In this document: positions 7,203-44,737 of the stretch, in pieces
Layout: every line of letters starts with the position of its first letter
Position numbering within the stretch: the first letter of the stretch is position 1
From: an uncultured Clostridia bacterium
Lineage (GTDB): Bacteria > Bacillota > Dehalobacteriia > UBA4068
DNA length: 64,000 bases
Reading direction: 5' to 3'
NCBI GenBank assembly: GCA_944393575.1
Contig: CALYAP010000030.1
Location: 180 to 64,179 of the forward strand
Made by a program: the position numbers and the translations under genes
The notes under the pieces: generated by a model
What the model saw: only the letters and a program-made list of their open reading frames with translations
Told to the model about the DNA's origin: nothing
Databases searched by the model: none

Positions 7203-7225
7203 GATAATTCCTCCGTTTCACAATA

Positions 7226-7642
7226 CTAGAAGGGCAAATCGTCATCGCCGACCATGTCGGCATCATTGCCCGCAGCAAAAGGGCTGCTTTCAACGGGAGG
7301 AGCCTCCCGGTAGCTGCCACTATCTTTGGGGGAAAGGAACCGAACATCATCGGCAATAACTTCAGCAGCTTTTCTTCTGGTGCCGTCTTTGGCCTCATAG
7401 CTTCTAATCTGCAGGCTACCATCAACCGCGCACAGCTTACCCTTGCTTAGGTAATTGGCACAGTTTTCGGCCTGCTGCCGCCAGACGACAACATCAATAA
7501 AATCGGTCTCCCTTTCGCCCTCAGCGTTTTTATATCTACGATCTACAGCAAGGGTAAAGGAAGCCACTGCTATGCCGTTTTTCGTATAGCGTAATTCCGG
7601 ATCCTGCGTGAGTCTACCTATTAATACGATGCGGTTTAGCAT
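7226..7642 (-). CDS. ssb: Single-stranded DNA-binding protein
   Basis: MLNRIVLIGRLTQDPELRYT start, acidic DDDLPF tail, located between rpsF and rpsR. Confidence 0.95.
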   Translation of the reverse strand: MLNRIVLIGRLTQDPELRYTKNGIAVASFTLAVDRRYKNAEGERETDFIDVVVWRQQAENCANYLSKGKLCAVDGSLQIRSYEAKDGTRRKAAEVIADDVRFLSPKDSGSYREAPPVESSPFAAGNDADMVGDDDLPF

Positions 7643-7664
7643 GGGGTTTCCTCCTTATGCCCTC

Positions 7665-7952
7665 TTATTCTCCGATTCTGACGACCAAATAACGCATGAT
7701 CTCATCAGCGATCTTAAAGTTACGTTCCAGTTCGCGGGGCAATTCCGGCATGCCTTTGATTTTCATCAAGACATAATAACCTTCACGCAGCTTTTGGATC
7801 TCATAGGCGAGTCTTCTTTTTCCCCAAGGCTCGACCTCGACAATCTCACCGCCATTGGCCTGGACCAGCGCTTTATACTTTTCGATGATTTGCGTATATT
7901 GCTCTTCTTCCAAATTCGGTTTAACAATATACATGACCTCGTAATCGCGCAA
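7665..7952 (-). CDS. rpsF: 30S ribosomal protein S6
   Basis: RDYEVMYIVKPNLEEEQ. The likely start is TTG at 7952, 8 nt after a GGAGGAGG RBS. The ORF track extends to 7961. Confidence 0.9.
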   Translation of the reverse strand: MRDYEVMYIVKPNLEEEQYTQIIEKYKALVQANGGEIVEVEPWGKRRLAYEIQKLREGYYVLMKIKGMPELPRELERNFKIADEIMRYLVVRIGE

Positions 7953-8058
7953 TCCTGACACCTCCTCCCTTTGGACTAACGGCCTTGCCTAGCTGGTAAA
8001 ACAATCATTAGACAAGGCAGGGTTGTATGACAACTATCGTATTATACCATAAAGATAT

Positions 8059-9177
8059 TTATTTAGCAAGATTTTTTTCACCCAGGTCAATCACACCAGT
8101 CTCGGCAAAAACACTCAATGATTGTTGGGCCGACACTGCTACCCAGCCCTCATTATCTTTGGCTAATACTTCCAGAGCAGAAATCGCTCGCTGATCGCCG
8201 ATCATACCCAAAGATTTTGCAACTGCGGCACGCACATGCCAATCTTTATCAGTAGCACTAATCAACAGCGGTTTAATACTATCTGTATTTTTGCTGGTGC
8301 CTAGGGCAGTAGCAGCAGCAACTCTCACAGCAGGATTAGGATGCGCCAAACAGGCCGCCACATTAGCAACCGGATAGCCGGATTCTGTTTTGGCAATGGT
8401 TTCCAGCACCCTTACTTTATGTTTATCATTGACCTTGGGCAGCAAATACGCTAATAATTTGGCGCTCTGTGGGCCCATGGAAGCCATTACTTCAGCGACC
8501 CGGGCCGGCAAAAAATGCTCCGGCCACATCAATGCTGCGGTCAATAGTGGCAAGCTTTTGGGCTCCTGCATCGCAGACAGCAGACGTGTCCCGGCAAGCT
8601 GGATCGATTCATCGCTGCTGGCCAGCATTTCCACAAAATCCTTGAGAGCGTCGGTATCAGGAAATCTGGCCCATGCTTCCAGTAAGACACTCTGAGGATA
8701 CTCTTCACGGTTGAGGCGCCGGCTGTAGCGTTCCATCAACCGTTCCTCCTTAACTAGAGTTTTCAATTGTTCCTGGACTGCCGGCTGGCATTTATCATAG
8801 GCAGCGGCAATATCTGCTAAAGCTTGCGGACCTTTGTTCTTAATCTGTTCCACCAGTTTCAGGTCAAGCTCTTCTTCTGCAGAAATCAGCTTGTCCTGCA
8901 TCGTCAAATATTCAGCCTCTATCTCAGCGGTGTCCTCTTCTATCGGCAAAAAGGTCACTGGTTCCTGCGGAACATCAGCTGGTTGTTCCTGATTTTTCCG
9001 CTTTGACCGCACCCCCAGAAAAATGATCAAAGCAATGATAATTACCGCCACTGCCGCCACGATCGACCAGAATAAAACCGTATTAGCAGAAATAAAAGCC
9101 AATAACCTATCCCATATGGTAGTCTGATTAGCTCCAGCAGTAGCTATTGCACTCAAAAAGTTATTAGGAATAGTCAT
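8059..9177 (-). CDS. Membrane-anchored HEAT-repeat protein
   Basis: One N-terminal TM helix. The C-terminal half shows HEAT/PBS-lyase-like repeats (NPAVRVAAATALG, DWHVRAAVAKSLG). Confidence 0.55.
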   Translation of the reverse strand: MTIPNNFLSAIATAGANQTTIWDRLLAFISANTVLFWSIVAAVAVIIIALIIFLGVRSKRKNQEQPADVPQEPVTFLPIEEDTAEIEAEYLTMQDKLISAEEELDLKLVEQIKNKGPQALADIAAAYDKCQPAVQEQLKTLVKEERLMERYSRRLNREEYPQSVLLEAWARFPDTDALKDFVEMLASSDESIQLAGTRLLSAMQEPKSLPLLTAALMWPEHFLPARVAEVMASMGPQSAKLLAYLLPKVNDKHKVRVLETIAKTESGYPVANVAACLAHPNPAVRVAAATALGTSKNTDSIKPLLISATDKDWHVRAAVAKSLGMIGDQRAISALEVLAKDNEGWVAVSAQQSLSVFAETGVIDLGEKNLAK

Positions 9178-9205
9178 TGCTATCCTCCTTAATCAGCCAA
9201 CTGCC

Positions 9206-9772
9206 TTAAAGCAAGGCAGCTAAATATTCCATAAAAGGCAATAAAACCGTTGATGTTGCCAAAAAATTCGCCACACTCTCGCCAAAGCCCATATCAATAC
9301 AGGCTGGCAGAACAATATCCGTTACAATAATAATCAATGCAATCATCAGCACCAGGGCAATGAAAGCGCCTAAAGCGCTATTGAGCTTACCCAACAAACC
9401 CCGGCCAAAAATACTGGTCACAGCATAGGCAATTTTCCGTACCGCCCAGTTGACCACAATAAAAATGATAATAAAGACAACTATCTCCAGCAGCCAGTTA
9501 GCAGCACTGGAAGTATCGATAAACAAGGAGAGAAAAGATAATAGCTGATCCCCTCCGCTGGCTGCTTCTCCCGCCTCGGCAGTCCCGCCAAAAGGCGGCA
9601 GTGCATCAACCAGACTGGTAGCTATCAATGCTGAAAAAGCACGTGCAGCATAATAGGCCAGGACTAAAGAGCCTACCTTAGCTACTACATTGATCGTTCC
9701 CCAGCGCCATCCATAGAGGATCGCTAAAATCAGCAGCGCTGCTAATACTAAATCTGCAACAGTGATACCCAT
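9206..9772 (-). CDS. CvpA family membrane protein
   Basis: 188 aa, 4-5 TM helices, N-terminal DLVLAALLILAILYGWRWG typical of CvpA. Confidence 0.7.
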   Translation of the reverse strand: MGITVADLVLAALLILAILYGWRWGTINVVAKVGSLVLAYYAARAFSALIATSLVDALPPFGGTAEAGEAASGGDQLLSFLSLFIDTSSAANWLLEIVVFIIIFIVVNWAVRKIAYAVTSIFGRGLLGKLNSALGAFIALVLMIALIIIVTDIVLPACIDMGFGESVANFLATSTVLLPFMEYLAALL

Positions 9773-30061: not shown

Positions 30062-30415
30062 TAGCTGAGCAAGCCTATAAGCCGGGTTCTGTCGTGGATG
30101 AACATCTGTCTGGCCTCATTGTTGCCAATGAGTTCTAGCAACCTCTGCGAGAAACTAAACGGGCCGCTTTCCAGCTTCTCTGTACGGTCTTGCTCCGGAT
30201 GGGGTTTACCTAGCCAGCCGGTCTCCCGGCTGCTGGTGCGCTCTTACCGCACCGTTGCACCCTTACCGCCAAAAATGGCGGCGGTTTATTTCTGTGGCAC
30301 TATCCTTAAGGTCGCCCTCACCGGCCGTTAGCCGGCATCCTGCCCTATGGAGCCCGGACTTTCCTCAGACAAGGGCTTTCGCCCAGAGCCTGCGTTCATC
30401 CAGCTTACTCAGCAT
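30062..30415 (-). ncRNA. rnpB: RNase P RNA (bacterial type)
   Basis: The reverse complement contains GAGGAAAGUCCGGGCUCCAUAGGGCAG, GGUAAGGGUGCAACGGUGCGGUAAGAGCGCACC and ACAGAACCCGGCUUAU. The 5' end (GCUGAGUAAGC) and 3' end (GCUUGCUCAGC) pair to form P1. Confidence 0.9.
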
Positions 30416-31222: not shown

Positions 31223-31930
31223 TTACTTATCATCCACAGTGGCCCGAGCCAGTAGATCAATAATCCGTTTCCTTTCTTGCTGCAAAGATTGTTGACGCCG
31301 CCTAATCTCCCCACTGTCATGTTGCGCTAACTTGGCGACCAGCTGCTCGATATCTTCAAGACGCAATTGCAGATAGTCTATCCATAGTTGCGGATGTTCC
31401 GCTATCAGGCACGGTCCAAAGTCAATTTCATCTTGACTCAGCTTCATCTGGCCATGCTCTGCGGCTAATGCCGTATAATAGATACCGCTATCCAAAGCCA
31501 TTGTTTCCTTAACTATCGACCATCTATGGTCCGCCAGCCAGCAACGCACCGCAGGCAGGTCTTTTTGCGGCTGAAGTACCAAGCGGTCTGCCGCCGTTAA
31601 TATAGCCGGAGCAGCAGCAAGTATATCAATCATCAACCGTCCGCCCATACCTGCTATTATTATTGTCGCCGCTTCTCCTGGATTTAATACCTCTAACCCC
31701 TCGCCGAGACGAACCTTTATTTTATCTTCCAGAGCCAGTCTCTTAACTAAAGATGCGGCATTGCGGTAAGGACCATCAGCCCTATCGCTAGCGATAACAT
31801 GTTCACAAATATTATTTTGGACAAGAAAAACCGGCAAGTAATTATGGTCTGTTCCGATATCAGCAGCAGTTTTTCCTGGCAGAACCAAGTCAGCTACTGC
31901 TTTGAGACGGTCATCCAGTTTTACCAGCAC
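31223..31930 (-). CDS. trmK: tRNA (adenine22-N1)-methyltransferase TrmK
   Basis: LDDRLKAVADLV..ADIGTDHNYLPVFLV and IIAGMGG motifs. Confidence 0.8.
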   Translation of the reverse strand: MLVKLDDRLKAVADLVLPGKTAADIGTDHNYLPVFLVQNNICEHVIASDRADGPYRNAASLVKRLALEDKIKVRLGEGLEVLNPGEAATIIIAGMGGRLMIDILAAAPAILTAADRLVLQPQKDLPAVRCWLADHRWSIVKETMALDSGIYYTALAAEHGQMKLSQDEIDFGPCLIAEHPQLWIDYLQLRLEDIEQLVAKLAQHDSGEIRRRQQSLQQERKRIIDLLARATVDDK

Positions 31931-32225
31931 AGGTTTTCCTCCAAAAATATCCGATATTTTTTATTTCTACTTTTCTGTCCTATACCCTGCCCCGAAATAG
32001 CCAAAAAAGAAAAAAGCTTGTCCCTTAAAACCTCTACTAAACCGAGACAAACGCATCTGACAAAGTTTTTTACAATCTCCTTATCAACCTATAAAAACAC
32101 TTGGTACAACGATATCAGAGAACCACTATCATCAAAGACACTTACTTAAGCATAGTAAAATAATTTTTGTTAAACAATTATAAATTAATTTAAGAAAATT
32201 TTTTGTAAAAAATTTTTCTTAGCTA

Positions 32226-32254
32226 TTGACAAAGCAAAAAACTGGTGATAAAAT
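32226..32254 (+). promoter_or_regulatory. SigmaA-type promoter of T-box unit A
   Basis: TTGACA (32226-32231), 17 nt spacer, TAAAAT (32249-32254). Confidence 0.65.
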
Positions 32255-32278
32255 GCAGTCCATAATTGAATATCACCA

Positions 32279-32546
32279 AAGGCAATGACGAAGACGGTCG
32301 AGCAGTTATGTTCGCAGAGAGTCGGCGGTTGGTGTAAGCCGATAACAACACTTCTCAAGTACCCATCACTTCCGAGCCGGGGATCCGAACGCTTATCTCA
32401 TAAGTTAGTAGACGTCCTCCGTGAAGCTGCGTTAAGGCGATGGGCTTGTTGGAGCCCTTTGAGGTGGCGCGAAAGCGCAATTTGAGTGGTACCGCGGGTA
32501 TGTTTATTCTCGTCTCAAAGATTTTTCTTTGAGACGATTTTTTATT
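32279..32546 (+). promoter_or_regulatory. T-box riboswitch leader, predicted specifier AUC (Ile)
   Basis: Stem I base has the K-turn context GGCAAUGACGAAG / CUUCCGAGCC. AG bulge AGAGAG and distal loop GGUUGGUGUAA are present. The T-box sequence AAUUUGAGUGGUACCGCGG is at 32479-32497. Terminator UCGUCUCAAAG...CUUUGAGACGA plus a U-run is at 32509-32546. AUC at 32365-32367 is followed by A and then the CUUC base stem. Confidence 0.85.
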
Positions 32547-32579
32547 ATTGGATATCAATAGTCTAAAGGAGGTTATCTC

Positions 32580-34841
32580 ATGTCCCCATGTAATGGAATG
32601 CTGCTGGAAGTTGCTTCACGCATCAGGGAAATGCGGGAAATCGCCGGATACACTCCGGAATTCATGGCAGAACAAACTGAAGTGTCTTTGGAAGATTATC
32701 TCAAATACGAAACTGGTTCTAGCGATCTTCCATTCACCTTTATTCATAAATGCGCACTGGTGTTTGATGTTGATATTACCGACTTGATGTCCGGACATAG
32801 TGCTAGGTTATCATCATATACTGTTACCCGCAAAGACGGCGGACAAATCACAGCCCGTGAGCCCGGCATCATCATCAAAAATCTGGCTCCACTCTTCCGC
32901 AATAAGATAGCTGAGCCTTTCTGGGTACGCTATTCCTATGATGAGAAACAACAACATAAACCAATCCATTTAACTACCCATGCTGGGCAGGAATTTGATC
33001 TGGTGCTAAGCGGCCAGCTCAAAGTTCAGGTGGGTGACAATATTGAAGTACTGCAGGAAGGCGACTGCATCTACTACAATAGCGCCACCCCTCACGGGAT
33101 GATCGCTATCGGCGGCAAGGACTGCATCTTCTGTGCAGTAGTCCTACCTGGCAAAGATAACGAAGAAGATAACCTAGGCGAAACTATCATGGCCACCAAA
33201 AAGATGGATCATCTCATCTATGAAAACTTCATCACTGTCGAAGAAGATGACATCGGAGCTTTGCAAAAGATCAGCTTCCATGATACAGATAAGTTCAATT
33301 TTGCTTTTGATATCGTTGATGAGATGGCTAAGAAACAACCGAACAAACTGGCCATGCTTCATCTGGACCGTGATAAAAATGAACGCCGCTTCACTTTCGA
33401 GGATATCAGCAGAGCCTCTTCCCGAGCCGCTAACTACTTCAAAGCTCTGGGCATCAAAAAGGGCGACCGCGTGATGCTGGTGCTCAGACGCAACTATCAA
33501 TTCTGGATAGCTATTTTAGGCTTACATAAGCTAGGTGCTATCGCTATCCCCGCCACTGACCAGCTGCAGAAAAAGGATTTTGAATACCGCTTTGAAGCTG
33601 CTGGAGTAAGCGCTATCGTCTGCACCTCTTTTGGCCACGTCTCCGAACAAGCAGAGTTAGCAATGGAAACCTGTCCTAATGTCAAAATCAAGATCATGGC
33701 TAATGGCGCCAAAGAAGGCTGGCATGATTTCGATAATGAATATATGATGTACCGCAGCACCTTTAAGCGCACCGAAGATAGCGCTGGCGGTGACGACCCG
33801 ATGCTGATGCTATTCACATCTGGTACTACTGGTTATCCTAAAATCGCTGCCCATAGCTACAAATATCCACTGGGACACTTCATCACCGCCAAGTATTGGC
33901 ATTGCGTCGACCCAGACGGGATCCATTTCACCATCTCTGATACTGGTTGGGGTAAAGCGCTCTGGGGTAAACTCTATGGCCAATGGCTCTGCGAAGCAGC
34001 TACTTTCACTTACGATTTTGACCGTTTTGACGCCCATGACCTGCTGCCGCTTTTTGCCAAATATCATATCACTACCTTCTGCGCGCCGCCGACCATGTAC
34101 CGCTTCATGATCAAAGAAGATATTTCCAAGTATGACCTCTCCTCTATCAAGCATGCAACCACTGCTGGTGAGGCGCTCAATCCTGAGGTTTTCCACCAGT
34201 TCAAAAAGGCTACCGGACTTTCGGTAATGGAAGGCTTTGGCCAAACAGAAACAACCTTAGTCTTAGGCAATTTCATTGGCGATACTCCCAAAATCGGCTC
34301 GATGGGCAAACCCAGCCCGCTCTATGAAGTGGAGCTGCTCAATAATGAAGGCCATCCGACTAAAGAAGGCGAGGTCGGTGAAATCTGCATCCGTACTGCC
34401 GAAAAAACACCAATCGGTCTCTATCTTGGCTACTACCGGGATGAAGAAGGCACTAAAGGCTCCTGGCACGATGGGTATTATCATACCGGTGATACGGCTT
34501 GGAAAGATGAGGACGGCTACTACTGGTATGTAGGCCGTGTTGACGACCTGATCAAATCCTCTGGTTACCGCATCGGCCCCTTTGAGATCGAGAGTGTTAT
34601 CATGGAGCTGCCCTATGTGCTGGAGTGTGCAGTTTCTCCGGCCCCAGACGCAATCCGCGGCCAAGTAGTCAAAGCCAGCATCGTTCTGACCAAGGGTACG
34701 GAACCCAGCGAAAACCTCAAAAAAGAGATCCAGACCTATGTCAAACAGCGCACCGCTCCTTATAAATACCCCAGAATCGTGGTCTTCCGTGATGATTTGC
34801 CCAAAACAATCAGCGGTAAAATCATCCGCCACCAGCTCTAA
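32580..34841 (+). CDS. Fusion protein: XRE-type HTH, cupin, then medium-chain-type acyl-CoA synthetase (AMP-forming)
   Basis: The N-terminal ~190 aa carry an HTH (IREMREIAGYTPEFMAEQTEVS) and a cupin (THAGQEFDLVLSGQLKVQVGD...EGDCIYYNSATPHG). The C-terminal part carries ANL motifs FTSGTTGYPK, YHTGD, GRVDDLIKSSGYRIGPFEIES and PKTISGKI. AAGGAGG RBS. Confidence 0.85.
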   Translation: MSPCNGMLLEVASRIREMREIAGYTPEFMAEQTEVSLEDYLKYETGSSDLPFTFIHKCALVFDVDITDLMSGHSARLSSYTVTRKDGGQITAREPGIIIKNLAPLFRNKIAEPFWVRYSYDEKQQHKPIHLTTHAGQEFDLVLSGQLKVQVGDNIEVLQEGDCIYYNSATPHGMIAIGGKDCIFCAVVLPGKDNEEDNLGETIMATKKMDHLIYENFITVEEDDIGALQKISFHDTDKFNFAFDIVDEMAKKQPNKLAMLHLDRDKNERRFTFEDISRASSRAANYFKALGIKKGDRVMLVLRRNYQFWIAILGLHKLGAIAIPATDQLQKKDFEYRFEAAGVSAIVCTSFGHVSEQAELAMETCPNVKIKIMANGAKEGWHDFDNEYMMYRSTFKRTEDSAGGDDPMLMLFTSGTTGYPKIAAHSYKYPLGHFITAKYWHCVDPDGIHFTISDTGWGKALWGKLYGQWLCEAATFTYDFDRFDAHDLLPLFAKYHITTFCAPPTMYRFMIKEDISKYDLSSIKHATTAGEALNPEVFHQFKKATGLSVMEGFGQTETTLVLGNFIGDTPKIGSMGKPSPLYEVELLNNEGHPTKEGEVGEICIRTAEKTPIGLYLGYYRDEEGTKGSWHDGYYHTGDTAWKDEDGYYWYVGRVDDLIKSSGYRIGPFEIESVIMELPYVLECAVSPAPDAIRGQVVKASIVLTKGTEPSENLKKEIQTYVKQRTAPYKYPRIVVFRDDLPKTISGKIIRHQL

Positions 34842-34868
34842 AGCAAAACACCTTTATATCCCCCAACT

Positions 34869-34903
34869 AAAACTGGACCAGGCAAAAGCCATGGTCCAGT
34901 TTT
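34869..34903. terminator. Bidirectional terminator between acyl-CoA synthetase A and the serpin gene
   Basis: AAAACTGGACC ... GGTCCAGTTTT. Confidence 0.75.
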
Positions 34904-34954
34904 AGCTTACACAGATCAAGAATAACACCTGCAGTAATTATTGATATATACGCA

Positions 34955-36241
34955 TTAGGCAACCGGGTTATTACAAATACCGACAAAGAGGATCATGCCG
35001 TTGCTGGCAGTGACCGCATAGATAAAGGGACGGTTCAAAATCATCTCCGCCCGTCCTTCAGGCATAGCAGCTCCGGCATAATCAATCTGGGTGAAAGCTG
35101 AGGCTTCGACGCCATTTTCATCGATAGCAATATGCGTCTCTTGATTAATACCACTAATAAAGGCCATCGCATCAGTGATTCCTGAGAAATCCGCATCCGT
35201 GTTAAAAGCAGCATTGATTCCTAGCGAGTGTAGCATATCAGCTAGGTTAGCACTAAAACCAAAGCTAAATTTGGGTATCTGCCAGATCACCTCGCCGCTG
35301 ACGCCTTCACCACCAGTGAGGACCTCCTGCAAAACATCTGGAGAAGATACCAATGATGCTACATCAACGCCCTCATCAGGTAGCACAAAAATCATACTGC
35401 CCGAGTTCTTTAAAGCCAGCTGAGAGCGGGTATAATTATTTCCCCGCACATAAGAGCTGGAGGCAAAAGTCTGGTTCATAAAATCGCATTCTACTGAACT
35501 ACTATCAGCTAGATAAAAGGTATCCGCAGCAGTTTCACTAGCATCAAAGCGGTCGATCCACTGATCATAAAAATAAACAGTATTAAGAATAGATAAGAGC
35601 TGCTCAGCATCAGTAGTGATCTGTGGAGTCAGCGTACCGTTAGTATCTTCAGTTATCCAAGCAGCCATGGCCTCACCAGCTGCCTGTTCAGCAAAATCCA
35701 CACTATAGGCACTGGCATAAAAATTACTTGTTGCCCCATCTAAAAAACTATCCTTGAAGGTGATTTCTTGGCCATTAACTTCATTATCTAACCATAGAGA
35801 AGTAGCGATCTTTAGCTGTGAAACTTCATTATCCGTATAGAGCAGCCGGTAAAGATTGCCGCACTGCTCCGCCAAGGTGTCGGCATCAGCTACCCCGAGT
35901 AAGTCTAGCAACTCCTGTTGAGTTTGCCCCTCGGCCCCACTGGCTGCCACTGCCAGGGCATAATAAAGACTGAGCGGCGAATAGTTGACATTTGTATCAG
36001 CATTATCATTTAATAAGGAAGAAGCAGTTTGATAGGCAAAATCATCAAAAGCATTAGCAAAACTATCGGTAATCTGGTTAGCTTCCCTAATAGCATATTT
36101 GGCTTCATAATCATCAAACCCTACCGCCTCTGGGTATTCCACCCCGCGCACCAGGCTATCCGCTGTAGCAGTCTGATTATCACAGGCAGCCAAAGCTAGC
36201 AAGGCAACAGCAGCGCATAAGGCCAGCAAAAATTTTTTCAT
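34955..36241 (-). CDS. Serpin family lipoprotein
   Basis: Signal peptide with lipobox LAAC. Serpin-length body. Hinge and reactive-centre loop ENGVEASAFTQIDYAGAAMPE are followed by NRPFIY. Confidence 0.8.
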   Translation of the reverse strand: MKKFLLALCAAVALLALAACDNQTATADSLVRGVEYPEAVGFDDYEAKYAIREANQITDSFANAFDDFAYQTASSLLNDNADTNVNYSPLSLYYALAVAASGAEGQTQQELLDLLGVADADTLAEQCGNLYRLLYTDNEVSQLKIATSLWLDNEVNGQEITFKDSFLDGATSNFYASAYSVDFAEQAAGEAMAAWITEDTNGTLTPQITTDAEQLLSILNTVYFYDQWIDRFDASETAADTFYLADSSSVECDFMNQTFASSSYVRGNNYTRSQLALKNSGSMIFVLPDEGVDVASLVSSPDVLQEVLTGGEGVSGEVIWQIPKFSFGFSANLADMLHSLGINAAFNTDADFSGITDAMAFISGINQETHIAIDENGVEASAFTQIDYAGAAMPEGRAEMILNRPFIYAVTASNGMILFVGICNNPVA

Positions 36242-36310
36242 TACTATGAGCCCTCCTTAATAAAGCTTTTAACTTTTAATAAAACTTCTAACTCCGAAAT
36301 AGCCCAATAT

Positions 36311-36610
36311 TTAATCTCTGATACCCTCGGCAATACAATTGCCAAAAAGGTAAAAGCAAAAAGCCGTTACCCCAGGGAATGCATCTTCAGGGAGAAAATT
36401 CCCCTCCAGTTCAATAGTATAGCCTAGTCCGCGGTAGGTACCGGAGCCACCATCATCAGCAGTTAATGATGCTGTGGCGAAAAGCGGCCGTTCAAAATCA
36501 TGGCGCACCCGCCAATAATCAACTACTACGGTAGCTGCCCATAAAACAATAACTGCCATTACAGTGATGACTAAAGCTGTCAATGCTTTCTTTTTTCTAA
36601 TCGCTTTCAC
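36311..36610 (-). CDS. Small membrane-anchored hypothetical protein
   Basis: One TM helix (ALTALVITVMAVIVLWAATVVV) followed by ~65 aa. The start is uncertain: an AGGAGG RBS at about 36612-36620 abuts the GTG at 36610. Confidence 0.4.
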   Translation of the reverse strand: MKAIRKKKALTALVITVMAVIVLWAATVVVDYWRVRHDFERPLFATASLTADDGGSGTYRGLGYTIELEGNFLPEDAFPGVTAFCFYLFGNCIAEGIRD

Positions 36611-36759
36611 CTCCTGAATAGACCCATGAGCAAAAGCTATCTGCAGGCCAAACAATTAATATTACTCTGGGAAAGGACAAACAGTTACCAGTATCTGTTT
36701 ATAAAATAAGACGCAGGGAAAAACAATTATGTTCCCAGGTAAAATTTTTGAAAAAACAT

Positions 36760-36788
36760 TTGACAGCGTCCAAAAGCCATGCTATAAT
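36760..36788 (+). promoter_or_regulatory. SigmaA-type promoter of T-box unit B
   Basis: TTGACA (36760-36765), 17 nt spacer, TATAAT (36783-36788). Confidence 0.7.
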
Positions 36789-36810
36789 ACATACTAATTT
36801 CATAAGAATA

Positions 36811-37068
36811 AAGGCAATGACGAAGAGGGTCGGGATTTTAGTAGTTACAGAGAGTTGGCGGTTGGTGCGAGCCAATAATGAACGGATTCCAATGGCTTGT
36901 CACTTCCGAGCCGGGGTGCAGAAAGCAAATGCAAGTAGAGCCTCCCGTGAAGCTGCGTTAAGGCGATGGGCTTGTTAGAGTCCTTTGAGTGGTGCGAAAG
37001 CGCAATTTGAGTGGTACCGCGGGTATGTTTATTCTCGTCTCAAAGATTTTCTTTGAGACGATTTTTTA
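36811..37068 (+). promoter_or_regulatory. T-box riboswitch leader, predicted specifier GUC (Val)
   Basis: Same architecture as unit A: GGCAAUGACGAAG / CUUCCGAGCC base, AGAGAG bulge, GGUUGGUGCGA distal loop, AAUUUGAGUGGUACCGCGG T-box sequence, and terminator plus U-run at about 37033-37068. GUC at 36899-36901 is followed by A and then CUUC. Confidence 0.85.
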
Positions 37069-37095
37069 TTTTACTTAAAAGGAGAAACGAGAGCA

Positions 37096-39399
37096 ATGAA
37101 CCAGTCCAACGAATTATTCTCTAAGCTGCATGAAGTGGCTGCCCGAATTCGCGAATTGCGGGAGATAGCTGGCTATACGCCAGAATTCATGGCAGAGCAG
37201 ACTGGCGTATCAGTTGGTGAATACCAAGAATGCGAAAGTGGCGAACAAGACCTCAACTTCGCTTTTATCTATCGCTGCGCCCAGGCTTTGAGCGTTGATG
37301 TTACTGATATCATCGAAGGCGCTAGCCCTAAACTTACATCATACACCCTGACCAGAAAAGGCGAAGGCCAGCGCATCGAAAAAGCACATGGGATGATCTA
37401 TTATAATCTGGCGGCAATGTTCAAAAACAGGATCGCTGAGCCACTGCTGGTCACAGCAGTCTATGATGAGGAAGCCCAGCATAAAGAAATCGAGATTACT
37501 ACTCATGCCGGACAAGAATGCGATATTATTGTCAAAGGACAGCTCAAGGTGCAAGTTGGCGATCATACAGAAATCCTCCAGGAAGGAGACTGCATCTACT
37601 ACAATAGCTCTACTCCACATGGCATGATCGCCGTTGGCGGAAAAGATTGCCTGTTCTATGCTATCGTTCTTAATCCTACTGGCGAGCCGATCCCAGGTAT
37701 CTCTGCTGGTCCACAGGAAGGAGATTTTCTGCCGGAGATCAAAGGCAAAGGACATCCTTGCCAAGCGCATCGGATCTATGAAAACTTCATCACGGTCAAA
37801 GAAAGCGAGATTGGCGCTCTTGAAGAGATCAGCTTCCATGATGATGAGCATTTCAATTTTGCCTTTGATATTGTCGATGAACTGGCCAAGAAAAAACCGA
37901 ACAAACTGGCTATGCTTCATCTGGACCGTGATAAGAATGAACGCCGCTTCACCTTTGAAGATATGAGCAGGGCTTCTTCCCGTGCCGCCAACTACTTCAA
38001 AGCGCTGGGCATCAAAAAAGGCGACCGTGTGATGCTGGTGCTCAAGCGGAATTATCAGTTCTGGTTCGCTGTTCTGGGCTTGCATAAGCTAGGTGCTATC
38101 GCTATCCCCGCCACTGATCAGCTGCAGAAAAAGGATTTCGAATACCGCTTTGAAGCCGCTGGAGTAAGCGCTATCATCTGCACTGCCTATGGTAGCTCCT
38201 CCGAGCAGGCAGAACTAGCAATGGAAACCTGCCCTAATGTCAAAATCAAGATCATGACCAATGGAGCCAAAGAAGGCTGGCATGATTTCGATAATGAATA
38301 TATGATGTACCGCAGCACCTTTAAACGCACCGAAGATAGCGCTGGCGGCGACGACCTGATGCTGATGTTCTTTACCTCTGGCACTACCGGATACCCCAAG
38401 ATGGCTGCACATAGCTTTAAATATCCGCTGGGGCATTTTATCACCGCTAAATATTGGCATTGTGTCGACCCGGAGGGGCTTCACCTGACCATCTCCGATA
38501 CTGGTTGGGCCAAAGCAATGTGGGGCAAGCTCTATGGCCAATGGCTCTGCGAAGCAGCGATCTTTGTTTATGACTTTGACCGTTTCGACGCCCATGACCT
38601 GCTGCCGCTTTTCGCTAAGCATCATATCACTACCTTCTGCGCTCCGCCGACCATGTACCGCTTCATGATTAAGGAGGATATCGCCAAGTATGACCTCTCC
38701 TCCATCAAGCATGCTACCACTGCTGGCGAAGCGCTTAACCCAGAGGTTTTCCACCAGTTCAAAAAAGTTACTGGACTCTCAATCATGGAAGGCTTTGGTC
38801 AAAGTGAAACCACTGTGGTCTTAGGCAATCTCATTGGCGATACTCCCAAAATCGGCTCGATGGGCAAGCCCAGCCCGCTCTATGAAGTAGAGCTGCTCGA
38901 TAACGAAGGGAATCCAACCAAAGTCGGCGAAGTTGGTGAAATCTGCATTCGTACTGCCGAAGGTGCACCACGCGGACTATTCAGAGGCTATTACCGTGAT
39001 GAAGAAAAAACTAATGACGCCTGGCATGATGGTTATTATCATACTGGCGATACGGCCTGGAAAGATGAAGATGGCTACTACTGGTATGTAGGCCGTGTTG
39101 ATGACCTAATTAAATCTTCCGGATACCGCATTGGCCCCTTTGAGATCGAGAGTGTGATGATGGAACTGCCCTACATTTTGGAGTGTGCAGTTTCTCCGGC
39201 CCCAGACGAAATCCGCGGCCAAGTGGTCAAAGCCAGCATCGTTCTTACTAAAGGGACGGAGCCCAGCGAAAACCTTAAAAAAGAGATCCAGACCTATGTC
39301 AAACAGCGCACCGCTCCTTATAAATACCCCAGGATCGTGGTCTTCCGTGACGAATTACCAAAAACACCCAGCGGCAAAATCATGCGTAACAAGCTATAA
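37096..39399 (+). CDS. Fusion protein: XRE-type HTH, cupin, then medium-chain-type acyl-CoA synthetase (paralog B)
   Basis: Same motifs as paralog A. It has a ~14 aa longer linker (PTGEPIPGISAGPQEGDFLPEIKGKGHPCQAHR). Confidence 0.85.
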   Translation: MNQSNELFSKLHEVAARIRELREIAGYTPEFMAEQTGVSVGEYQECESGEQDLNFAFIYRCAQALSVDVTDIIEGASPKLTSYTLTRKGEGQRIEKAHGMIYYNLAAMFKNRIAEPLLVTAVYDEEAQHKEIEITTHAGQECDIIVKGQLKVQVGDHTEILQEGDCIYYNSSTPHGMIAVGGKDCLFYAIVLNPTGEPIPGISAGPQEGDFLPEIKGKGHPCQAHRIYENFITVKESEIGALEEISFHDDEHFNFAFDIVDELAKKKPNKLAMLHLDRDKNERRFTFEDMSRASSRAANYFKALGIKKGDRVMLVLKRNYQFWFAVLGLHKLGAIAIPATDQLQKKDFEYRFEAAGVSAIICTAYGSSSEQAELAMETCPNVKIKIMTNGAKEGWHDFDNEYMMYRSTFKRTEDSAGGDDLMLMFFTSGTTGYPKMAAHSFKYPLGHFITAKYWHCVDPEGLHLTISDTGWAKAMWGKLYGQWLCEAAIFVYDFDRFDAHDLLPLFAKHHITTFCAPPTMYRFMIKEDIAKYDLSSIKHATTAGEALNPEVFHQFKKVTGLSIMEGFGQSETTVVLGNLIGDTPKIGSMGKPSPLYEVELLDNEGNPTKVGEVGEICIRTAEGAPRGLFRGYYRDEEKTNDAWHDGYYHTGDTAWKDEDGYYWYVGRVDDLIKSSGYRIGPFEIESVMMELPYILECAVSPAPDEIRGQVVKASIVLTKGTEPSENLKKEIQTYVKQRTAPYKYPRIVVFRDELPKTPSGKIMRNKL

Positions 39400-39423
39400 G
39401 CTATAAACCGTAAGTACGGATCC

Positions 39424-39476
39424 CTCATAAAAATGATCCCTCCTCGCCAAAAGGCAGGAGGGATCATTTTTATGAG
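39424..39476. terminator. Bidirectional terminator between acyl-CoA synthetase B and the OFOR operon
   Basis: 21-bp perfect inverted repeat CTCATAAAAATGATCCCTCCT / AGGAGGGATCATTTTTATGAG. Confidence 0.8.
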
Positions 39477-39541
39477 TTGTTTTCTATTTAACTCAAACCA
39501 TTCTACTTATTAAGCTGTTTCATTAAACTTTGAAAATCAAT

Positions 39542-40090
39542 CTATTTCATTACCATACCAGCAGCCTCAGCGCCTTTACGCAAAGCCTCACGGTTAACCG
39601 GAATCAGATGTTTCTTTCTTTCGCCTAATTTATGCTGCAAGGCATCAATGATGCTTTCTTCGCTAACGCATTTGGTAGCAGCGACATAAGCGCCCAGCAT
39701 AGCAATATTGGCAACTTTAGGCTGTCCAAGTTCAACGGCAATCTCAGTACAAGGGATATAGAATGCATCTAAATCATCCCGGGTAGTTTTTCTGGAAATA
39801 ATCGAGCTATTAATAAATAGTTTGCCCTGAGGAATGATAGCCTGTTCAAACTTATCTAAAGAAGGAGCATTCATCGCAATCAAAGAGGTAGGATGCTCAA
39901 TAATCGGGGATGCTACCGGCTTATCAGAAATAGTGACTGAGCAGTTAGCCGTACCGCCGCGCATCTCCGGGCCATAAGAAGGCAACCACGCAACATTATG
40001 TCCTTCGAACAAGGCAGCCTGAGCCAGCAGTTGTCCCATCAATAAAACGCCTTGCCCGCCAAAACCAGCAAAAATATCTCTCTCCAGCAT
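39542..40090 (-). CDS. 2-oxoacid:ferredoxin oxidoreductase, gamma subunit
   Basis: 182 aa. FAGFGGQGVLLMGQLLA start is typical of the POR/KOR/VOR gamma subunit. Confidence 0.85.
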   Translation of the reverse strand: MLERDIFAGFGGQGVLLMGQLLAQAALFEGHNVAWLPSYGPEMRGGTANCSVTISDKPVASPIIEHPTSLIAMNAPSLDKFEQAIIPQGKLFINSSIISRKTTRDDLDAFYIPCTEIAVELGQPKVANIAMLGAYVAATKCVSEESIIDALQHKLGERKKHLIPVNREALRKGAEAAGMVMK

Positions 40091-40092
40091 CG

Positions 40093-40827
40093 CTATACCT
40101 CCTTAAAAACGCCCAAAGGATAATAGGGGATCATCTCATCCTCCAGCCATTGCATCGCTTCGATAGGTGATTTGCCCCAGTTGGTCGGGCAGGTAGAGAG
40201 CACCTCTACCATAGAAAAGCCCTTGCGTTCCATCTGCGTCTCAAAAGCTTTGCGAATAGCTTTCTTGGTCTTGATAATATTAGCATTATTATTGACAGCG
40301 GTACGTTCGATATAAGCGGAGCCTTCAATAGTAGCGAGCAGCTCAGCCATGCGAATCGGCTCACCGCAAAGATCCTTATCCCTACCCTTAGGGCTAGTAG
40401 TGGTACGTTGACCAACCAAAGTGGTCGGCGCCATCTGACCGCCGGTCATACCATAAATGGCATTATTGATAAAGATAGTGGTGATCTTCTCTCCCCTATG
40501 AGCTGCGTGAACGATCTCTGCAGTACCGATAGAGGCCAGGTCGCCATCACCTTGATAAGTAAAAACACAGTTATTGGGGAAAACCCGTTTAGCACCAGTG
40601 GCGACTGCCGGAGCACGTCCATGTGCTGCTTCATACATATCACAATTAAAATAATTATAAGCAAATACTGCGCAACCGACCGGTGCAACGCCAACGGTAT
40701 GGTCGAGAAGATCCATTTCCTCAAGGACTTCTGCTACCAGACGGTGCACTATCCCATGGCCGCAGCCAGGGCAATAATGATTAGGAACATCAATCAGTCC
40801 CTTAGTTCTAGCGAAAACCTTGGTCAT
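40093..40827 (-). CDS. 2-oxoacid:ferredoxin oxidoreductase, beta (TPP-binding) subunit
   Basis: CPGCGHG..., GDGDLASIG and NNAIYGMTGGQ motifs. Confidence 0.9.
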   Translation of the reverse strand: MTKVFARTKGLIDVPNHYCPGCGHGIVHRLVAEVLEEMDLLDHTVGVAPVGCAVFAYNYFNCDMYEAAHGRAPAVATGAKRVFPNNCVFTYQGDGDLASIGTAEIVHAAHRGEKITTIFINNAIYGMTGGQMAPTTLVGQRTTTSPKGRDKDLCGEPIRMAELLATIEGSAYIERTAVNNNANIIKTKKAIRKAFETQMERKGFSMVEVLSTCPTNWGKSPIEAMQWLEDEMIPYYPLGVFKEV

Positions 40828-40829
40828 TG

Positions 40830-41906
40830 TTATTCCTCCCTCAGCGCTTTAACTTTGGCAATGATTTCCTCAACAGTGGCGATCTTGCTTCCGGGATAAC
40901 CCAGGAAAGCAACCTCCTTTAGACCATTGACTGCTAGACGGGCGTCTTCGACCATCTGACCAGCACTGATCTCTACAGCCAAGGCTTTCTTGACTGAAGG
41001 CTGAGCCACTGCATCCAATACCGCCTGAGAAGGGAACGGCCATAAGGTGATCGGACGAACCATGCCAACCTTAATCCCCTCCTCTGCTAATTCATCAATA
41101 GCAGAACGGCAAACGCGGGAGATGGTGCCATAGGCGATCAGGATAACTTCTGCATCCTCAATATTATAATACTCATATCTAACTTCATTTTGCTCAATAA
41201 TACGATAACGTGCCTGCAAGCGCTCATGCAGAGCTTCCAGAGCTTCATCTTCGATATAAAGGGAATTGATAATTGCTCTTGGCCGTCCGCATCCTTCATG
41301 CCAGCCAGTAGCAGCCCAAGGCTTCTCAACTTTTATTTCCTCGTCGCTCTTAAATTCAGGCATAGTGACTGGCTCCATCATCTGACCGATCAAGCCATCG
41401 GCCAAGATCATCACTGGAGTGCGGTATTTATCAGCGATATCAAAAGCACCATAAACGATATCGATAGCCTCTTGGACAGAATCCGGACCAAAAACGATCA
41501 GCTTATAATCGCCATGACCGCCGCCTTTGACTGATTGGAAATAGTCACCCTGGGAAGCCTGAATACCACCAATGCCCGGGCCACCGCGCATTACATTCAC
41601 GATCACGCAAGGCAGCTCCGCACCAGCAATGGTAGAGATACCTTCCTGTTTTAAGCTGATTCCCGGGCTAGAGCTGGAAGTCATAACTCTAGCGCCGGCA
41701 CCTGCGGCGCCGTATACCATATTAGAAGCTGCGATCTCCGACTCCGCCTGGAGAAAAACACCACCGATCTCCGGCAAACGGGCGGACATATATTCAGGAA
41801 TATCATTCTGCGGGGTGATTGGGTAGCCGAAGAAATAGCGGCAACCTCCGCGCAGTGCTGCCTCAGCAATAGCTTCGCAGCCTTTCATCAATTGTTTAGT
41901 CGTCAT
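40830..41906 (-). CDS. 2-oxoacid:ferredoxin oxidoreductase, alpha subunit
   Basis: 358 aa. GCEAIAEAALRGGCRYFFGYPITPQ start. Confidence 0.9.
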   Translation of the reverse strand: MTTKQLMKGCEAIAEAALRGGCRYFFGYPITPQNDIPEYMSARLPEIGGVFLQAESEIAASNMVYGAAGAGARVMTSSSSPGISLKQEGISTIAGAELPCVIVNVMRGGPGIGGIQASQGDYFQSVKGGGHGDYKLIVFGPDSVQEAIDIVYGAFDIADKYRTPVMILADGLIGQMMEPVTMPEFKSDEEIKVEKPWAATGWHEGCGRPRAIINSLYIEDEALEALHERLQARYRIIEQNEVRYEYYNIEDAEVILIAYGTISRVCRSAIDELAEEGIKVGMVRPITLWPFPSQAVLDAVAQPSVKKALAVEISAGQMVEDARLAVNGLKEVAFLGYPGSKIATVEEIIAKVKALREE

Positions 41907-41919
41907 CTATGTAGCCCTC

Positions 41920-42126
41920 CTATTTATCGATCTCTATTGCCACATCAGGACAAGTACGGGCACAGGCAGCACAGGCGATGCAAGCATCCTGGTCTACGAT
42001 ACGTACTGGCTGATAACCTTTGGAATTAAGTTTCGTCTCTTCCAAAGTTAGCAGGTTTTTGGGACAAGCACGAACGCACAGTCCACAACCTTTACAGATC
42101 TCGGTATATATTGTTAATTTAGCCAT
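41920..42126 (-). CDS. 2-oxoacid:ferredoxin oxidoreductase, delta subunit (2x[4Fe-4S] ferredoxin)
   Basis: 68 aa with two CxxCxxCxxxCP motifs. Confidence 0.85.
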   Translation of the reverse strand: MAKLTIYTEICKGCGLCVRACPKNLLTLEETKLNSKGYQPVRIVDQDACIACAACARTCPDVAIEIDK

Positions 42127-42145
42127 TTACTCTAACCTCCATCTT

Positions 42146-42853
42146 TTAAACTCCGTATTTAACGAATCTATCCCAGTCGCGGTGCATCTTAGTATGGATG
42201 AACACCGGTTCACCAATATAATCCTGTTTTAAATCCCGCTCCTGTGCCAGCTGCAAAAAACCGCTTAGCGGCTGCTCTTCTCCACTGGTCATAACTACCG
42301 GTACTCCAGTTTGGGCAGCAACTTCCTTAACTATATAATAGGAATGGAGGAGATCCTCCGCCGTGCTTTCATAGCTCATGTTCCCATTATTAATTAAGCC
42401 GTTGATTCTGAGTCTCGCACTCTCCTCAATGGCTCTCATCATAGCTATTATCTTGTCCGGGGTTGCCGACATTGGTCGGTGCGGGTTAATAACAAGCCAT
42501 ATACGCAATCGAGGTGGTGGAACTTTATCAAAGTAGCCTTTATACTGGCCTAGCGCACGCGCTCCTAGACCATCGCCGCCGACGTCAAAAATAACGCTGC
42601 CAGATCCGGCAGTAAAGGCGGAATAAATCTCGGGGTTGATGGTAATTATCTCAACATTGCTCATCGCATAGTTAGGGATAATTAGTCGTACGCCAGCCTT
42701 GTCTAGAGCTAGCTTTCTTTCCGAGGCCCGAAAATAGGGGTTGATCACATCTAGGTCGATGAGAGTAGTCGGATTACCAGCTGCTGCAGCATCCATAGCA
42801 AAATGCATTGCCAGTTCAGTCTTGCCACTGCCAAAGTTGCCAAGGAAAATCAT
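42146..42853 (-). CDS. P-loop NTPase (MinD/CooC-like SIMIBI fold) of unknown function, first gene of the OFOR operon
   Basis: MIFLGNFGSGKTE Walker A at the N-terminus and an IDLD..NP motif. The ATG at 42853 follows AGGAAA. The ORF track extends to the GTG at 42892. A candidate promoter GTGACA, 17 nt, TATAAT lies on the minus strand upstream (about 42905-42945). Confidence 0.55.
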   Translation of the reverse strand: MIFLGNFGSGKTELAMHFAMDAAAAGNPTTLIDLDVINPYFRASERKLALDKAGVRLIIPNYAMSNVEIITINPEIYSAFTAGSGSVIFDVGGDGLGARALGQYKGYFDKVPPPRLRIWLVINPHRPMSATPDKIIAMMRAIEESARLRINGLINNGNMSYESTAEDLLHSYYIVKEVAAQTGVPVVMTSGEEQPLSGFLQLAQERDLKQDYIGEPVFIHTKMHRDWDRFVKYGV

Positions 42854-42999
42854 ATATTCTTTTTCCTGGGCTTTATCCGACACAAATCTCACTTTCCTCT
42901 CAAATTTGAATAGAATATATTATAGCACAGTTATTGAGAATTGTCACTATTTTATTTAGGAAATTTATTACTTTTTTGCAACAAAAAAGCATGATTATT

Positions 43000-43037
43000 C
43001 AGAATAAAACAAAAACATCTCCAGCATAATGGAGATG
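43000..43037 (-). terminator. Terminator-like hairpin about 420 bp downstream of tgt
   Basis: Minus strand CATCTCCA ttatgc TGGAGATG followed by TTTTTGTTTT. Confidence 0.5.
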
Positions 43038-43203
43038 CAGATATCTAAACTGAGCCAAAGGCTAACTACGGCAAAAACATACCATATCTAGAGCTAACCA
43101 ATCATATCAGCAGGATTATTGTGCTAAAAAACAATGGTGACTATGGCTAAACTATATAGTAAAATAACAATATAAAAACAAATGCTGATTAGGAGACAAA
43201 GGT

Positions 43204-43455
43204 ATGTTAGAATTCAAATTTGATACGCAACTGTTGATCGAAGGAGAACATCTAGATGAAGATGCTATCAGCGCCTATTTCCGCAAAAACTTTCAGGGAG
43301 ATTGTCTTCTAGCCGTTGGTGACGAAGAGCTGATCAAAATCCATTTTCACACCAATGAACCATGGCAGGTGCTGGAATATTGCGCTTCTTTAGGCGAGAT
43401 TTACGATATCGTGATCGAAAATATGGAACGTCAATCGCAGGGTCTTCCCGGATAG
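43204..43455 (+). CDS. Stand-alone 83-aa ORF resembling the C-terminal domain of FakA/YloV (DAK2-fusion fatty acid kinase); possible gene remnant
   Basis: GDCLLAVGDEELIKIHFHTNEPWQVLEYCASLGEIYDIVIENMERQ resembles the conserved ...vKvHvHT..P..vl......G.l..i.i.NM..Q end of YloV-type proteins. AGGAGA RBS. Confidence 0.45.
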   Translation: MLEFKFDTQLLIEGEHLDEDAISAYFRKNFQGDCLLAVGDEELIKIHFHTNEPWQVLEYCASLGEIYDIVIENMERQSQGLPG

Positions 43456-43459
43456 GGGC

Positions 43460-44737
<1,278 letters not shown>

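Follow-up and report, generated by a model that had tools for sequence, protein, structure and literature searches.

The window analysed here is a 64-kb stretch (64,000 nucleotides) of contig CALYAP010000030.1 from an uncultured Clostridia bacterium. Between positions 32226 and 42853 it carries two paralogous genes for AMP-forming acyl-CoA synthetases, acs1 and acs2, each behind a T-box leader of its own, and, on the opposite strand, an operon for a four-subunit 2-oxoacid:ferredoxin oxidoreductase (OFOR). An initial annotation had proposed that these genes form a module, inducible by starvation for isoleucine (Ile) or valine (Val), which salvages branched short-chain fatty acids into amino acids. 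The borders chosen for the interval coincide with features of the locus: at 32226 lies the -35 box of the first promoter, and 42853 is the ATG of the open reading frame (ORF) of a P-loop protein, orf248. The features are listed in table 1.

Table 1. Features of the studied interval (window positions).
Feature	Positions	Strand	Description
Promoter, Ile-T-box/acs1 unit	32226-32254	+	sigma70-type; TTGACA, 17 nt spacer, TAAAAT, extended -10 TG; its -35 box is the start of the studied interval
T-box leader 1	32276-32520 (match); 32276-32546 (including antiterminator/terminator region)	+	80.2 bits, E 7.8e-17; specifier ATC (Ile)
Terminator, leader 1	32510-32537	+	12-bp stem, then T-run
acs1	32580-34841	+	753 aa; HTH(XRE)-cupin-AMP-forming acyl-CoA synthetase, Ile-type
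Promoter, Val-T-box/acs2 unit	36760-36788	+	sigma70-type; TTGACA, 17 nt spacer, TATAAT
T-box leader 2	36808-37045 (match); 36808-37070 (including terminator)	+	89.3 bits, E 3.6e-19; specifier GTC (Val)
Terminator, leader 2	37035-37061	+	12-bp stem, then T-run
acs2	37096-39399	+	767 aa; HTH(XRE)-cupin-AMP-forming acyl-CoA synthetase, Val-type
OFOR gamma	39542-40090	-	POR domain
OFOR beta	40093-40827	-	TPP-binding domain
OFOR alpha	40830-41906	-	POR_N + PFOR_II
OFOR delta	41920-42126	-	68 aa, two [4Fe-4S] motifs
orf248	42146-42853	-	P-loop NTPase of the SIMIBI class, opens the OFOR operon; ATG 42853 likely start, GTG 42892 possible
Promoter, OFOR operon	42947-42919	-	sigma70-type; 11/12 consensus matches

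Leaders, synthetases and oxidoreductase of the window

A permissive cmscan of positions 31900-37200 returned two matches to the T-box family RF00230, both of which cover model positions 1-219 of 219. With 80.2 and 89.3 bits they fall below the Rfam gathering score of the family, 93 bits, which is a curation threshold and not a structural feature, and are consequently missed by a default Rfam scan; in the window such a scan reports only an RNase P RNA above the gathering threshold. Standard annotation would overlook the whole leader class, despite E-values of about 1e-17 to 1e-19. We regard the leaders as genuine T-boxes in spite of their scores because homologous leaders precede the orthologous genes in 78 of 80 related loci (see below).

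The specifier triplet, which lies in the Stem I internal loop ahead of the K-turn closing helix, was read from the register of the covariance model. The two leaders are 86% identical and their specifiers are one base apart (ATC versus GTC). Both contain the conserved T-box sequence AGUGGUACCGCG with the UGGN bulge, and in both the terminator and the antiterminator are mutually exclusive. Searches with the window leaders (nhmmer) and scans for the T-box core motif found no third T-box in the window, and there is no tRNA gene in the 64 kb. The promoter of the Val-T-box/acs2 unit, with 12/12 consensus matches, is the best promoter-like site within 32100-43500; the second best is that of the Ile-T-box/acs1 unit, with 11/12.

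The proteins encoded by acs1 and acs2 are 80% identical. Each contains the domains AMP-binding (PF00501, E 1e-62 to 1e-65) and AMP-binding_C (PF13193, about 1e-20), preceded by an N-terminal module of about 245 residues composed of an XRE-type helix-turn-helix (HTH; HTH_3/19/31 domains) and a Cupin_2 domain. The N-terminal 195 residues align over their full length with 1Y9Q, an HTH_3 family regulator. Proteins with this HTH-cupin-ligase fusion constitute a large clostridial family that has no characterised member and is named in the databases only as 'AMP-binding protein'; the ANL core motifs are invariant across it. Among solved structures, the catalytic domain is nearest to 3ETC (E 1.6e-193), the enzyme MacsMa of Methanosarcina acetivorans, which prefers 2-methylbutyrate (PMC10455477), so that the preference of MACS-type enzymes given in the initial annotation was correct. 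The top NCBIfam model for both proteins is MbcS (440 and 444 bits), an enzyme with selectivity for 2-methylbutyrate and isobutyrate that performs poorly with isovalerate, acetate and propionate (PMC10026030). The product of acs1 is predicted to be a 2-methylbutyrate-CoA ligase and that of acs2 an isobutyrate-CoA ligase.

The OFOR is encoded as four separate subunits in one operon, in the order delta-alpha-beta-gamma (42126-39542, minus strand), and the domains of the subunits were all found. The gene acs2, which ends at 39399 on the plus strand, and the gamma gene, which ends at 39542 on the minus strand, stand tail-to-tail, as first described. The alpha subunit belongs to NCBIfam NF005507 ('VorB'; 524 bits, cutoff 399), and its closest solved relative is 1yd7. 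Two alpha subunits encoded next to synthetase genes in related genomes, at the loci L060 and L006, belong to the same subfamily (529 and 534 bits). The promoter of the OFOR operon is preceded by a terminator (43038-43015), which follows the gene tgt.

The operon opens with orf248. The initial annotation had the synthetases and the OFOR right; it overlooked both this gene and the HTH-cupin part of the fusion proteins. There are 55 orthologues of orf248, typically of about 220 aa and named 'hypothetical protein' or 'ParA family protein'. The Walker A motif GxxGSGKT is invariant among them; further motifs are, in the numbering of the window protein, D46-x-D48-(I/V)-NPYFR, D103-x-GGD-xx-GA and N168-N169-x-N171. 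No cysteine is conserved: no Cys column exceeds 51% among the 55 orthologues. The AlphaFold model is confident (pLDDT 86, pTM 0.85) and matches the G-domains of SRP54/FtsY, ATPase-type HypB, NifH and MinD with probability 1.0 and a TM-score of only about 0.5. Judged from this model, orf248 is a divergent member of the SIMIBI class, which is rich in nucleotide-dependent cofactor-insertion factors. A NifH-like ATP-driven reductase and an Fe-S carrier of the Mrp/NBP35 type were also considered and are ruled out by the lack of conserved cysteines. In all gene orders observed, the P-loop gene comes first in the OFOR operon, and its product is probably an OFOR assembly or activation factor.

Conservation of the module in related genomes

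A single scan of GTDB species representatives with the synthetase gave 80 loci from species-level genomes other than that of the window. Most are metagenome-assembled genomes from the guts of ruminants, other herbivores and humans, and they represent Acutalibacteraceae, Oscillospiraceae, Christensenellaceae, Ruminococcus, Saccharofermentans and Faecousia.

The two window leaders served as the basis of a profile with which leaders were sought in these loci. A T-box lies ahead of nearly every synthetase gene (78/80 loci); in the two loci without a match, L052 and L076, the first synthetase gene is cut by the contig end. The Ile- and Val-specific T-boxes reported initially are thus a feature kept across the 80 species. 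All 43 leaders of upstream paralogues have the specifier ATC. The leaders of downstream paralogues and of most solo genes (n = 75) have GTA (66), GTC (8) or GTG (1), so that variation among Val leaders is confined to the third codon position and is synonymous. Since this position varies while the amino acid stays the same, the Val specifier codon appears to be functional. One solo synthetase gene has the specifier CTG. At L045 (9444-9461) and L052 (1840-1868) the Val-type synthetase gene abuts the Ile-type gene and lacks a T-box of its own; both genes would there fall under the Ile leader.

A recurrent co-directional block was identified with the window proteins as tblastn queries: synthetase A, synthetase B, a homologue of orf248 and OFOR delta-alpha-beta-gamma. 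The complete set of orf248 and the four subunits is present in 36 of the 51 loci with at least 5 kb of downstream sequence, and the P-loop gene directly follows the last synthetase gene in 47 of the 67 with at least 1.5 kb. A homologue of orf248 immediately precedes delta in 47 of 67 loci with sufficient sequence. Median intergenic gaps inside the block are 14-100 nt. At L060 the gene directly 3' of gamma is ilvE, for a branched-chain amino acid aminotransferase (NF009897, 487 bits, cutoff 307). This gene immediately follows gamma in 28 of the 39 loci that contain gamma and lies elsewhere in the block in seven more (35/39). In most related species, therefore, a Val T-box heads a tight operon of synthetase, P-loop gene, OFOR delta-alpha-beta-gamma and ilvE.

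Two other gene orders were observed. The layout of the window recurs at L082, where tgt, the P-loop gene (orf245) and delta-alpha-beta-gamma converge on a synthetase gene with a Val (GTC) T-box. At L084 all genes are co-directional: leuA, a gene for an acyl carrier protein, the P-loop gene (orf247), delta-alpha-beta-gamma, a synthetase gene with an Ile (ATC) T-box and a second with a Val (GTC) T-box. The first two of these (6991-9747, ahead of the P-loop gene and the OFOR) include a genuine 2-isopropylmalate synthase (696 bits, cutoff 532). The initial annotation had suggested that co-occurrence of T-box, synthetase and OFOR be followed across genomes; their adjacency is kept through three different gene orders. 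Because the linkage outlasts three rearrangements, the synthetase and the OFOR are likely to be functionally coupled.

A particular arrangement is found at L030 (9680-20550), where a single Leu (CTG) T-box heads a Val-type synthetase gene, the P-loop gene, the OFOR, ilvE, a leuA-like gene and a gene for a fusion of a TIM barrel and a ligase. This looks like a switch of specifier that has placed isobutyrate assimilation under the control of leucine.

The absence of ilv and leu genes from the window, noted initially, is borne out: E. coli IlvE/D/A/C/I/H and LeuA/B/C/D, used as tblastn queries, had no match at E <=1e-4. Nor was any copy of ilvB/H/C/D/A or leuB/C/D found in the 1.27 Mb of related loci, which are not whole genomes.

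Residues that distinguish Ile-type and Val-type synthetases

The two classes of enzymes were compared in an alignment of 42 Ile-linked and 75 Val-linked sequences, and a position was called discriminating when each class was at least 85% uniform and the classes differed. Identity is 72-73% within a class and 65% between classes. There are 15 discriminating positions. The product of acs1 carries the Ile-class residue at 12 of them, and that of acs2 the Val-class residue at 14.

Within the catalytic domain, the cleanest discriminator falls in the motif DTGW(G/A)K, where Gly is present in 42/42 Ile-type and Ala in 74/75 Val-type enzymes. The window proteins follow the pattern, with Ala472 in acs2 and Gly in acs1, and the difference is kept despite catalytic domains that are 82-96% identical. 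In an alignment with E. coli Acs the position coincides with Val310 of the enterobacterial enzyme, which is reported to be one of the four residues of the acetate pocket (Gulick 2003, Ingram-Smith 2006). By this alignment, the Gly/Ala position would be a site of the acyl pocket. A second pocket residue of Acs, Trp414, is aligned with Gly (Gly568) in all Ile-type and Val-type enzymes, and the conserved segment DTGW(G/A)KA(L/M)WGK provides an alternative Trp, of the W-x-K-x-x-W type.

The same features are found in MacsMa, which also has Gly at the discriminating site, as in the Ile-type enzymes. Its acyl pocket differs from that of Acs in having Gly in place of Trp416, with Trp259 as the alternative Trp that shapes the pocket, and the rule that pairs loss of the Acs pocket Trp to Gly with an alternative Trp comes from the same work (PMC10455477). 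MacsMa differs from the window proteins in being archaeal, in lacking the HTH-cupin module and in not being known to be controlled by a T-box; the window proteins, for their part, are two specialised paralogues (Gly versus Ala). The difference of one methyl group in the wall of the pocket fits the one-carbon gap between 2-methylbutyrate and isobutyrate, the bulkier Ala suiting the smaller acid. Gly versus Ala thus offers a one-residue hypothesis for the choice between C5 and C4 substrates.

The two window proteins are mosaics: identity is 44-64% over the first 250 residues and 82-96% across the catalytic domain. The 3' halves of the two window leaders are also nearly identical. Because the catalytic domains and these leader halves are far more alike than the N-termini, the pattern suggests recent homogenisation of the catalytic domains by gene conversion, which would have spared the N-terminal module and the Gly/Ala residue of the pocket.

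The remaining discriminating positions, 13 of the 15, are in the HTH-cupin module. Because most residues that tell the Ile-type from the Val-type enzymes fall there, the module is probably a class-specific ligand sensor. The same domains make up the one-component regulators of the XRE-HTH plus cupin type, such as 1Y9Q and regulators of the PuuR type; here they are fused to an enzyme. This raises the question of whether the fusion proteins are mainly transcription regulators, in which the HTH-cupin part binds DNA and the ligase domain serves as the sensor, as in BirA. The resemblance to 1Y9Q throughout the XRE-type HTH and cupin N-terminus, and the concentration of class-specific residues in it, would agree with such a role. 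Against it, more than 100 sequences, with 65-73% identity, retain all ANL catalytic motifs and pocket residues, and inspection of the three window promoters by eye revealed no shared operator-like repeat. The consensus of the recognition-helix region is moreover acidic (VEEY..CE.G), which would be unusual for contact with DNA. Mainly regulatory proteins are for these reasons the least probable of the explanations considered here; a dual role as enzyme and regulator is possible.

A more specific proposal, which we put forward tentatively and with more doubt than confidence, is that the HTH-cupin module senses the cognate Ile or Val, or the cognate keto or branched acid, in a class-specific manner and gates the ligase allosterically or makes a BirA-like enzyme-repressor, and that the Cys-free SIMIBI NTPase is a nucleotide-dependent factor dedicated to the assembly of the VOR-type OFOR or to driving carboxylation, its thermodynamically uphill direction. 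Both layers would be without precedent. If the sensor exists, tRNA-level control of transcription and metabolite-level control would meet in one polypeptide.

Proposed salvage of branched short-chain acids and its relation to known systems

We consider it quite probable that the module salvages 2-methylbutyrate and isobutyrate, branched fermentation acids that abound in gut and rumen, into Ile and Val and is induced through uncharged tRNA-Ile and tRNA-Val. Comparative genomics lends strong support to this reading, a salvage route and an alternative biosynthesis; the support is computational throughout. Uncharged tRNA-Ile would pair with the ATC of leader 1 and stabilise the antiterminator, so that acs1 is transcribed, and the product would convert 2-methylbutyrate into 2-methylbutyryl-CoA at the expense of ATP, with AMP and PPi as by-products. 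Uncharged tRNA-Val would act likewise at leader 2 (GTC) on acs2, the product of which would form isobutyryl-CoA from isobutyrate. With reduced ferredoxin and CO2, the four-subunit OFOR would reductively carboxylate the two thioesters to 2-oxo-3-methylvalerate and 2-oxoisovalerate, from which a branched-chain aminotransferase would produce Ile and Val. In most relatives this last enzyme would be supplied by the ilvE of the operon, and in the organism of the window by a gene elsewhere in its genome. 2-Oxoisovalerate could also enter leucine synthesis through LeuA. From the genes and leaders we infer which substrates are used, that the OFOR runs reductively and that starvation acts as the inducer.

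T-box regulation and the biochemistry of ANL enzymes are established, and ligation of the AMP-forming type is effectively irreversible. The anabolic direction is preferred because the ligases are of this type and are controlled by the uncharged cognate tRNA, and because L030 puts a Val-type ligase, the OFOR, ilvE and a leuA-like gene under one Leu T-box. The arrangement at L030 fits salvage, since 2-oxoisovalerate is the precursor of leucine. In rumen organisms, the formation of isoleucine by reductive carboxylation of 2-methylbutyrate is accepted physiology (PMC2812497).

The synthetases might instead supply primers for branched-chain lipids, that is, acyl-CoA for anteiso and iso fatty acids. 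Branched-chain amino acid (BCAA) shortage would then be read by the T-boxes as a proxy for shortage of primers, and the OFOR and IlvE, working oxidatively from BCAA to acyl-CoA, would be an alternative route to the same products. The provision of such primers is the role of MbcS, the top model for both proteins (PMC10026030), orf247 and the OFOR of L084 are directly preceded by the acyl carrier protein gene, and the reversibility of OFORs is established biochemistry. In Blautia hydrogenotrophica a catabolic cluster joins an aminotransferase with a 2-keto acid oxidoreductase; it uses a phosphate acyltransferase and a fatty-acid kinase, however, and not an AMP-forming ligase (PMC2903421). Oxidative IlvE and OFOR, if induced when tRNA-Val is uncharged, would also drain the very amino acid that is scarce. 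Separate control of the paralogues by Ile and Val, and control by Leu together with a leuA-like gene at L030, follow the logic of amino acids. A primary function in lipid priming is unlikely on these grounds. The two uses are not exclusive, and the acyl-CoA pool could feed both.

Several points weigh against the salvage of branched acids into Ile and Val. In the window only the ligases, that is, the activation step, are demonstrably under T-box control: nhmmer and motif scans found no T-box after the promoter of the OFOR operon, nor was one found upstream of the OFOR in the close relatives L082 and L084. The initial view of a module under Ile and Val T-boxes therefore stands for both synthetases and not for the window OFOR operon, which has its own promoter. 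For the transamination step proposed there, ilvE is in the block at 35 of the 39 gamma-containing loci, whereas neither ilvE nor a leuA-like gene was found in the 64-kb window. Where the genes are arranged in the common way, the Val T-box alone precedes the OFOR and ilvE, and this does not account for supply of the Ile branch under pure Ile shortage. With 440 and 444 bits against an MbcS equivalog cutoff of 850, the synthetases fall far short of it and are relatives of MbcS and not equivalogs. The pocket role of the Gly/Ala position rests, for MacsMa itself, on the alignment with Acs. As for the OFOR, 'VorB' is an annotation name at subfamily level and the substrate cannot be read from the sequence; homologues of alpha are variously named 2-oxoglutarate ferredoxin oxidoreductase or VorB, so that the names conflict, and delta-alpha-beta-gamma OFORs of gut anaerobes have also been assigned to 2-oxoglutarate (PMC11304471). 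Finally, in about 15 species the T-box-synthetase gene is solo, with no OFOR within 10 kb; no conserved neighbours of these genes were found.

The conflicting names, the solo genes and the convergent OFOR with its own promoter and without a T-box would all be expected if the genes were neighbours by coincidence, the OFOR being a general 2-oxoglutarate or pyruvate enzyme and the synthetases acting alone, for example in the detoxification or assimilation of short-chain acids. The linkage is nonetheless kept in three gene orders, mostly as a tight Val-T-box operon ending in ilvE. The window operon also opens with the same rare P-loop gene as the OFORs linked to synthetase blocks, and its alpha subunit is in the same NCBIfam subfamily as theirs. 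Coincidence is accordingly very unlikely.

Salvage into Ile and Val would join parts that are each familiar: T-boxes, ANL ligases and OFORs are already known, and so is the physiology of isoacid assimilation. Many fibre-degrading anaerobes have been known from the 1960s onwards to require isoacids (isobutyrate, 2-methylbutyrate and isovalerate) or to profit from them, building Val, Ile and Leu from these acids, and isoacids are marketed as feed additives for ruminants. Allison and co-workers reportedly described the reductive carboxylation of the three acids, by which rumen bacteria form Val, Ile and Leu, and methanogens reportedly have an anabolic VOR. The three steps proposed here, activation, a VOR-type OFOR and transamination, are the same as in isoacid carboxylation by rumen bacteria and methanogens, and the habitat is the same; the literature searched covers physiology and enzymology, without a gene-level module, its regulation or the specialisation of paralogues.

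The window leaders share riboswitch class and mechanism with the BCAA T-boxes of Firmicutes (ileS, valS, leuS, the ilv-leu operons and brnQ). Common to both are the specifier in Stem I, the UGGN bulge, the intrinsic terminator and a logic in which an uncharged tRNA calls for supply of the cognate amino acid. Unlike those T-boxes, which act on tRNA synthetases, biosynthesis or transport, the leaders described here act on acyl-CoA ligases and mostly also on the OFOR-ilvE operon. Targets of these kinds, CoA ligases or OFORs, are not listed in the open T-box catalogues consulted (Wels 2008; Sun 2013 and its supplements), in agreement with the initial impression that the regulatory logic has not been described. 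MbcS of Staphylococcus aureus selects the two acids predicted here, 2-methylbutyrate and isobutyrate, but is one enzyme for both, serves fatty-acid priming and has no HTH-cupin module, no linkage to OFOR or ilvE and no T-box.

As far as we found in the open-access literature searched, the module, the Ile/Val specifier logic (with Leu nearby), the Gly/Ala switch between paralogues, the HTH-cupin fusion and the P-loop gene are undescribed. The locus and its relatives offer a set of genes that is easily identified (T-box, fusion ligase, P-loop protein, OFOR, ilvE), with a regulatory logic that would sense which amino acid runs short, and this set could be used as a marker to predict gut organisms that respond to the supply of isoacids. 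With it, the T-box regulon would come to include a ferredoxin-dependent, CO2-fixing route of salvage. The genes and regulation of isoacid use in the dominant uncultured Clostridia are undefined in the literature searched, and a 60-year-old question is made testable.

T-boxes with a Leu specifier (CTC or CTG) adjoin the module in at least 14 related loci, where they head an operon of three genes. It was seen at L060 (16864-21828) and also at L005, L008, L013, L016, L024, L031, L034, L036, L043, L055, L074, L080 and others. The first gene is a divergent leuA-like gene (HMGL and LeuA_dimer domains; about 280 bits versus the isopropylmalate synthase cutoff of 532), the second encodes a protein of 841 aa in which a xylose-isomerase-like TIM barrel is fused to an AMP-forming ligase, and the third an Amidohydro_2 protein. 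No leuBCD genes were found near these operons. The three genes may represent a leucine arm of the system.

The other genes around the interval include a bacterial class A RNase P RNA (30062-30411, minus strand, 298 bits). Between the two synthetase units, on the minus strand, are a gene for a serpin of 428 aa with a lipoprotein-like N-terminus (34955-36241) and an ORF of 114 aa without family match (36311-36655). Both are outside the system and are missing from this position in related loci; at L082 their place is taken by an ABC transporter. The gene tgt (43460-44734, minus strand) adjoins the OFOR operon. At L082 (216-8868) tgt is part of a conserved stretch, ruvCAB-queH-spoIID-queA-...-tgt, and a similar run of ORFs is present on the minus strand of the window. 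The like tgt stretch of L082 shows that the arrangement of the window is common to its clade.

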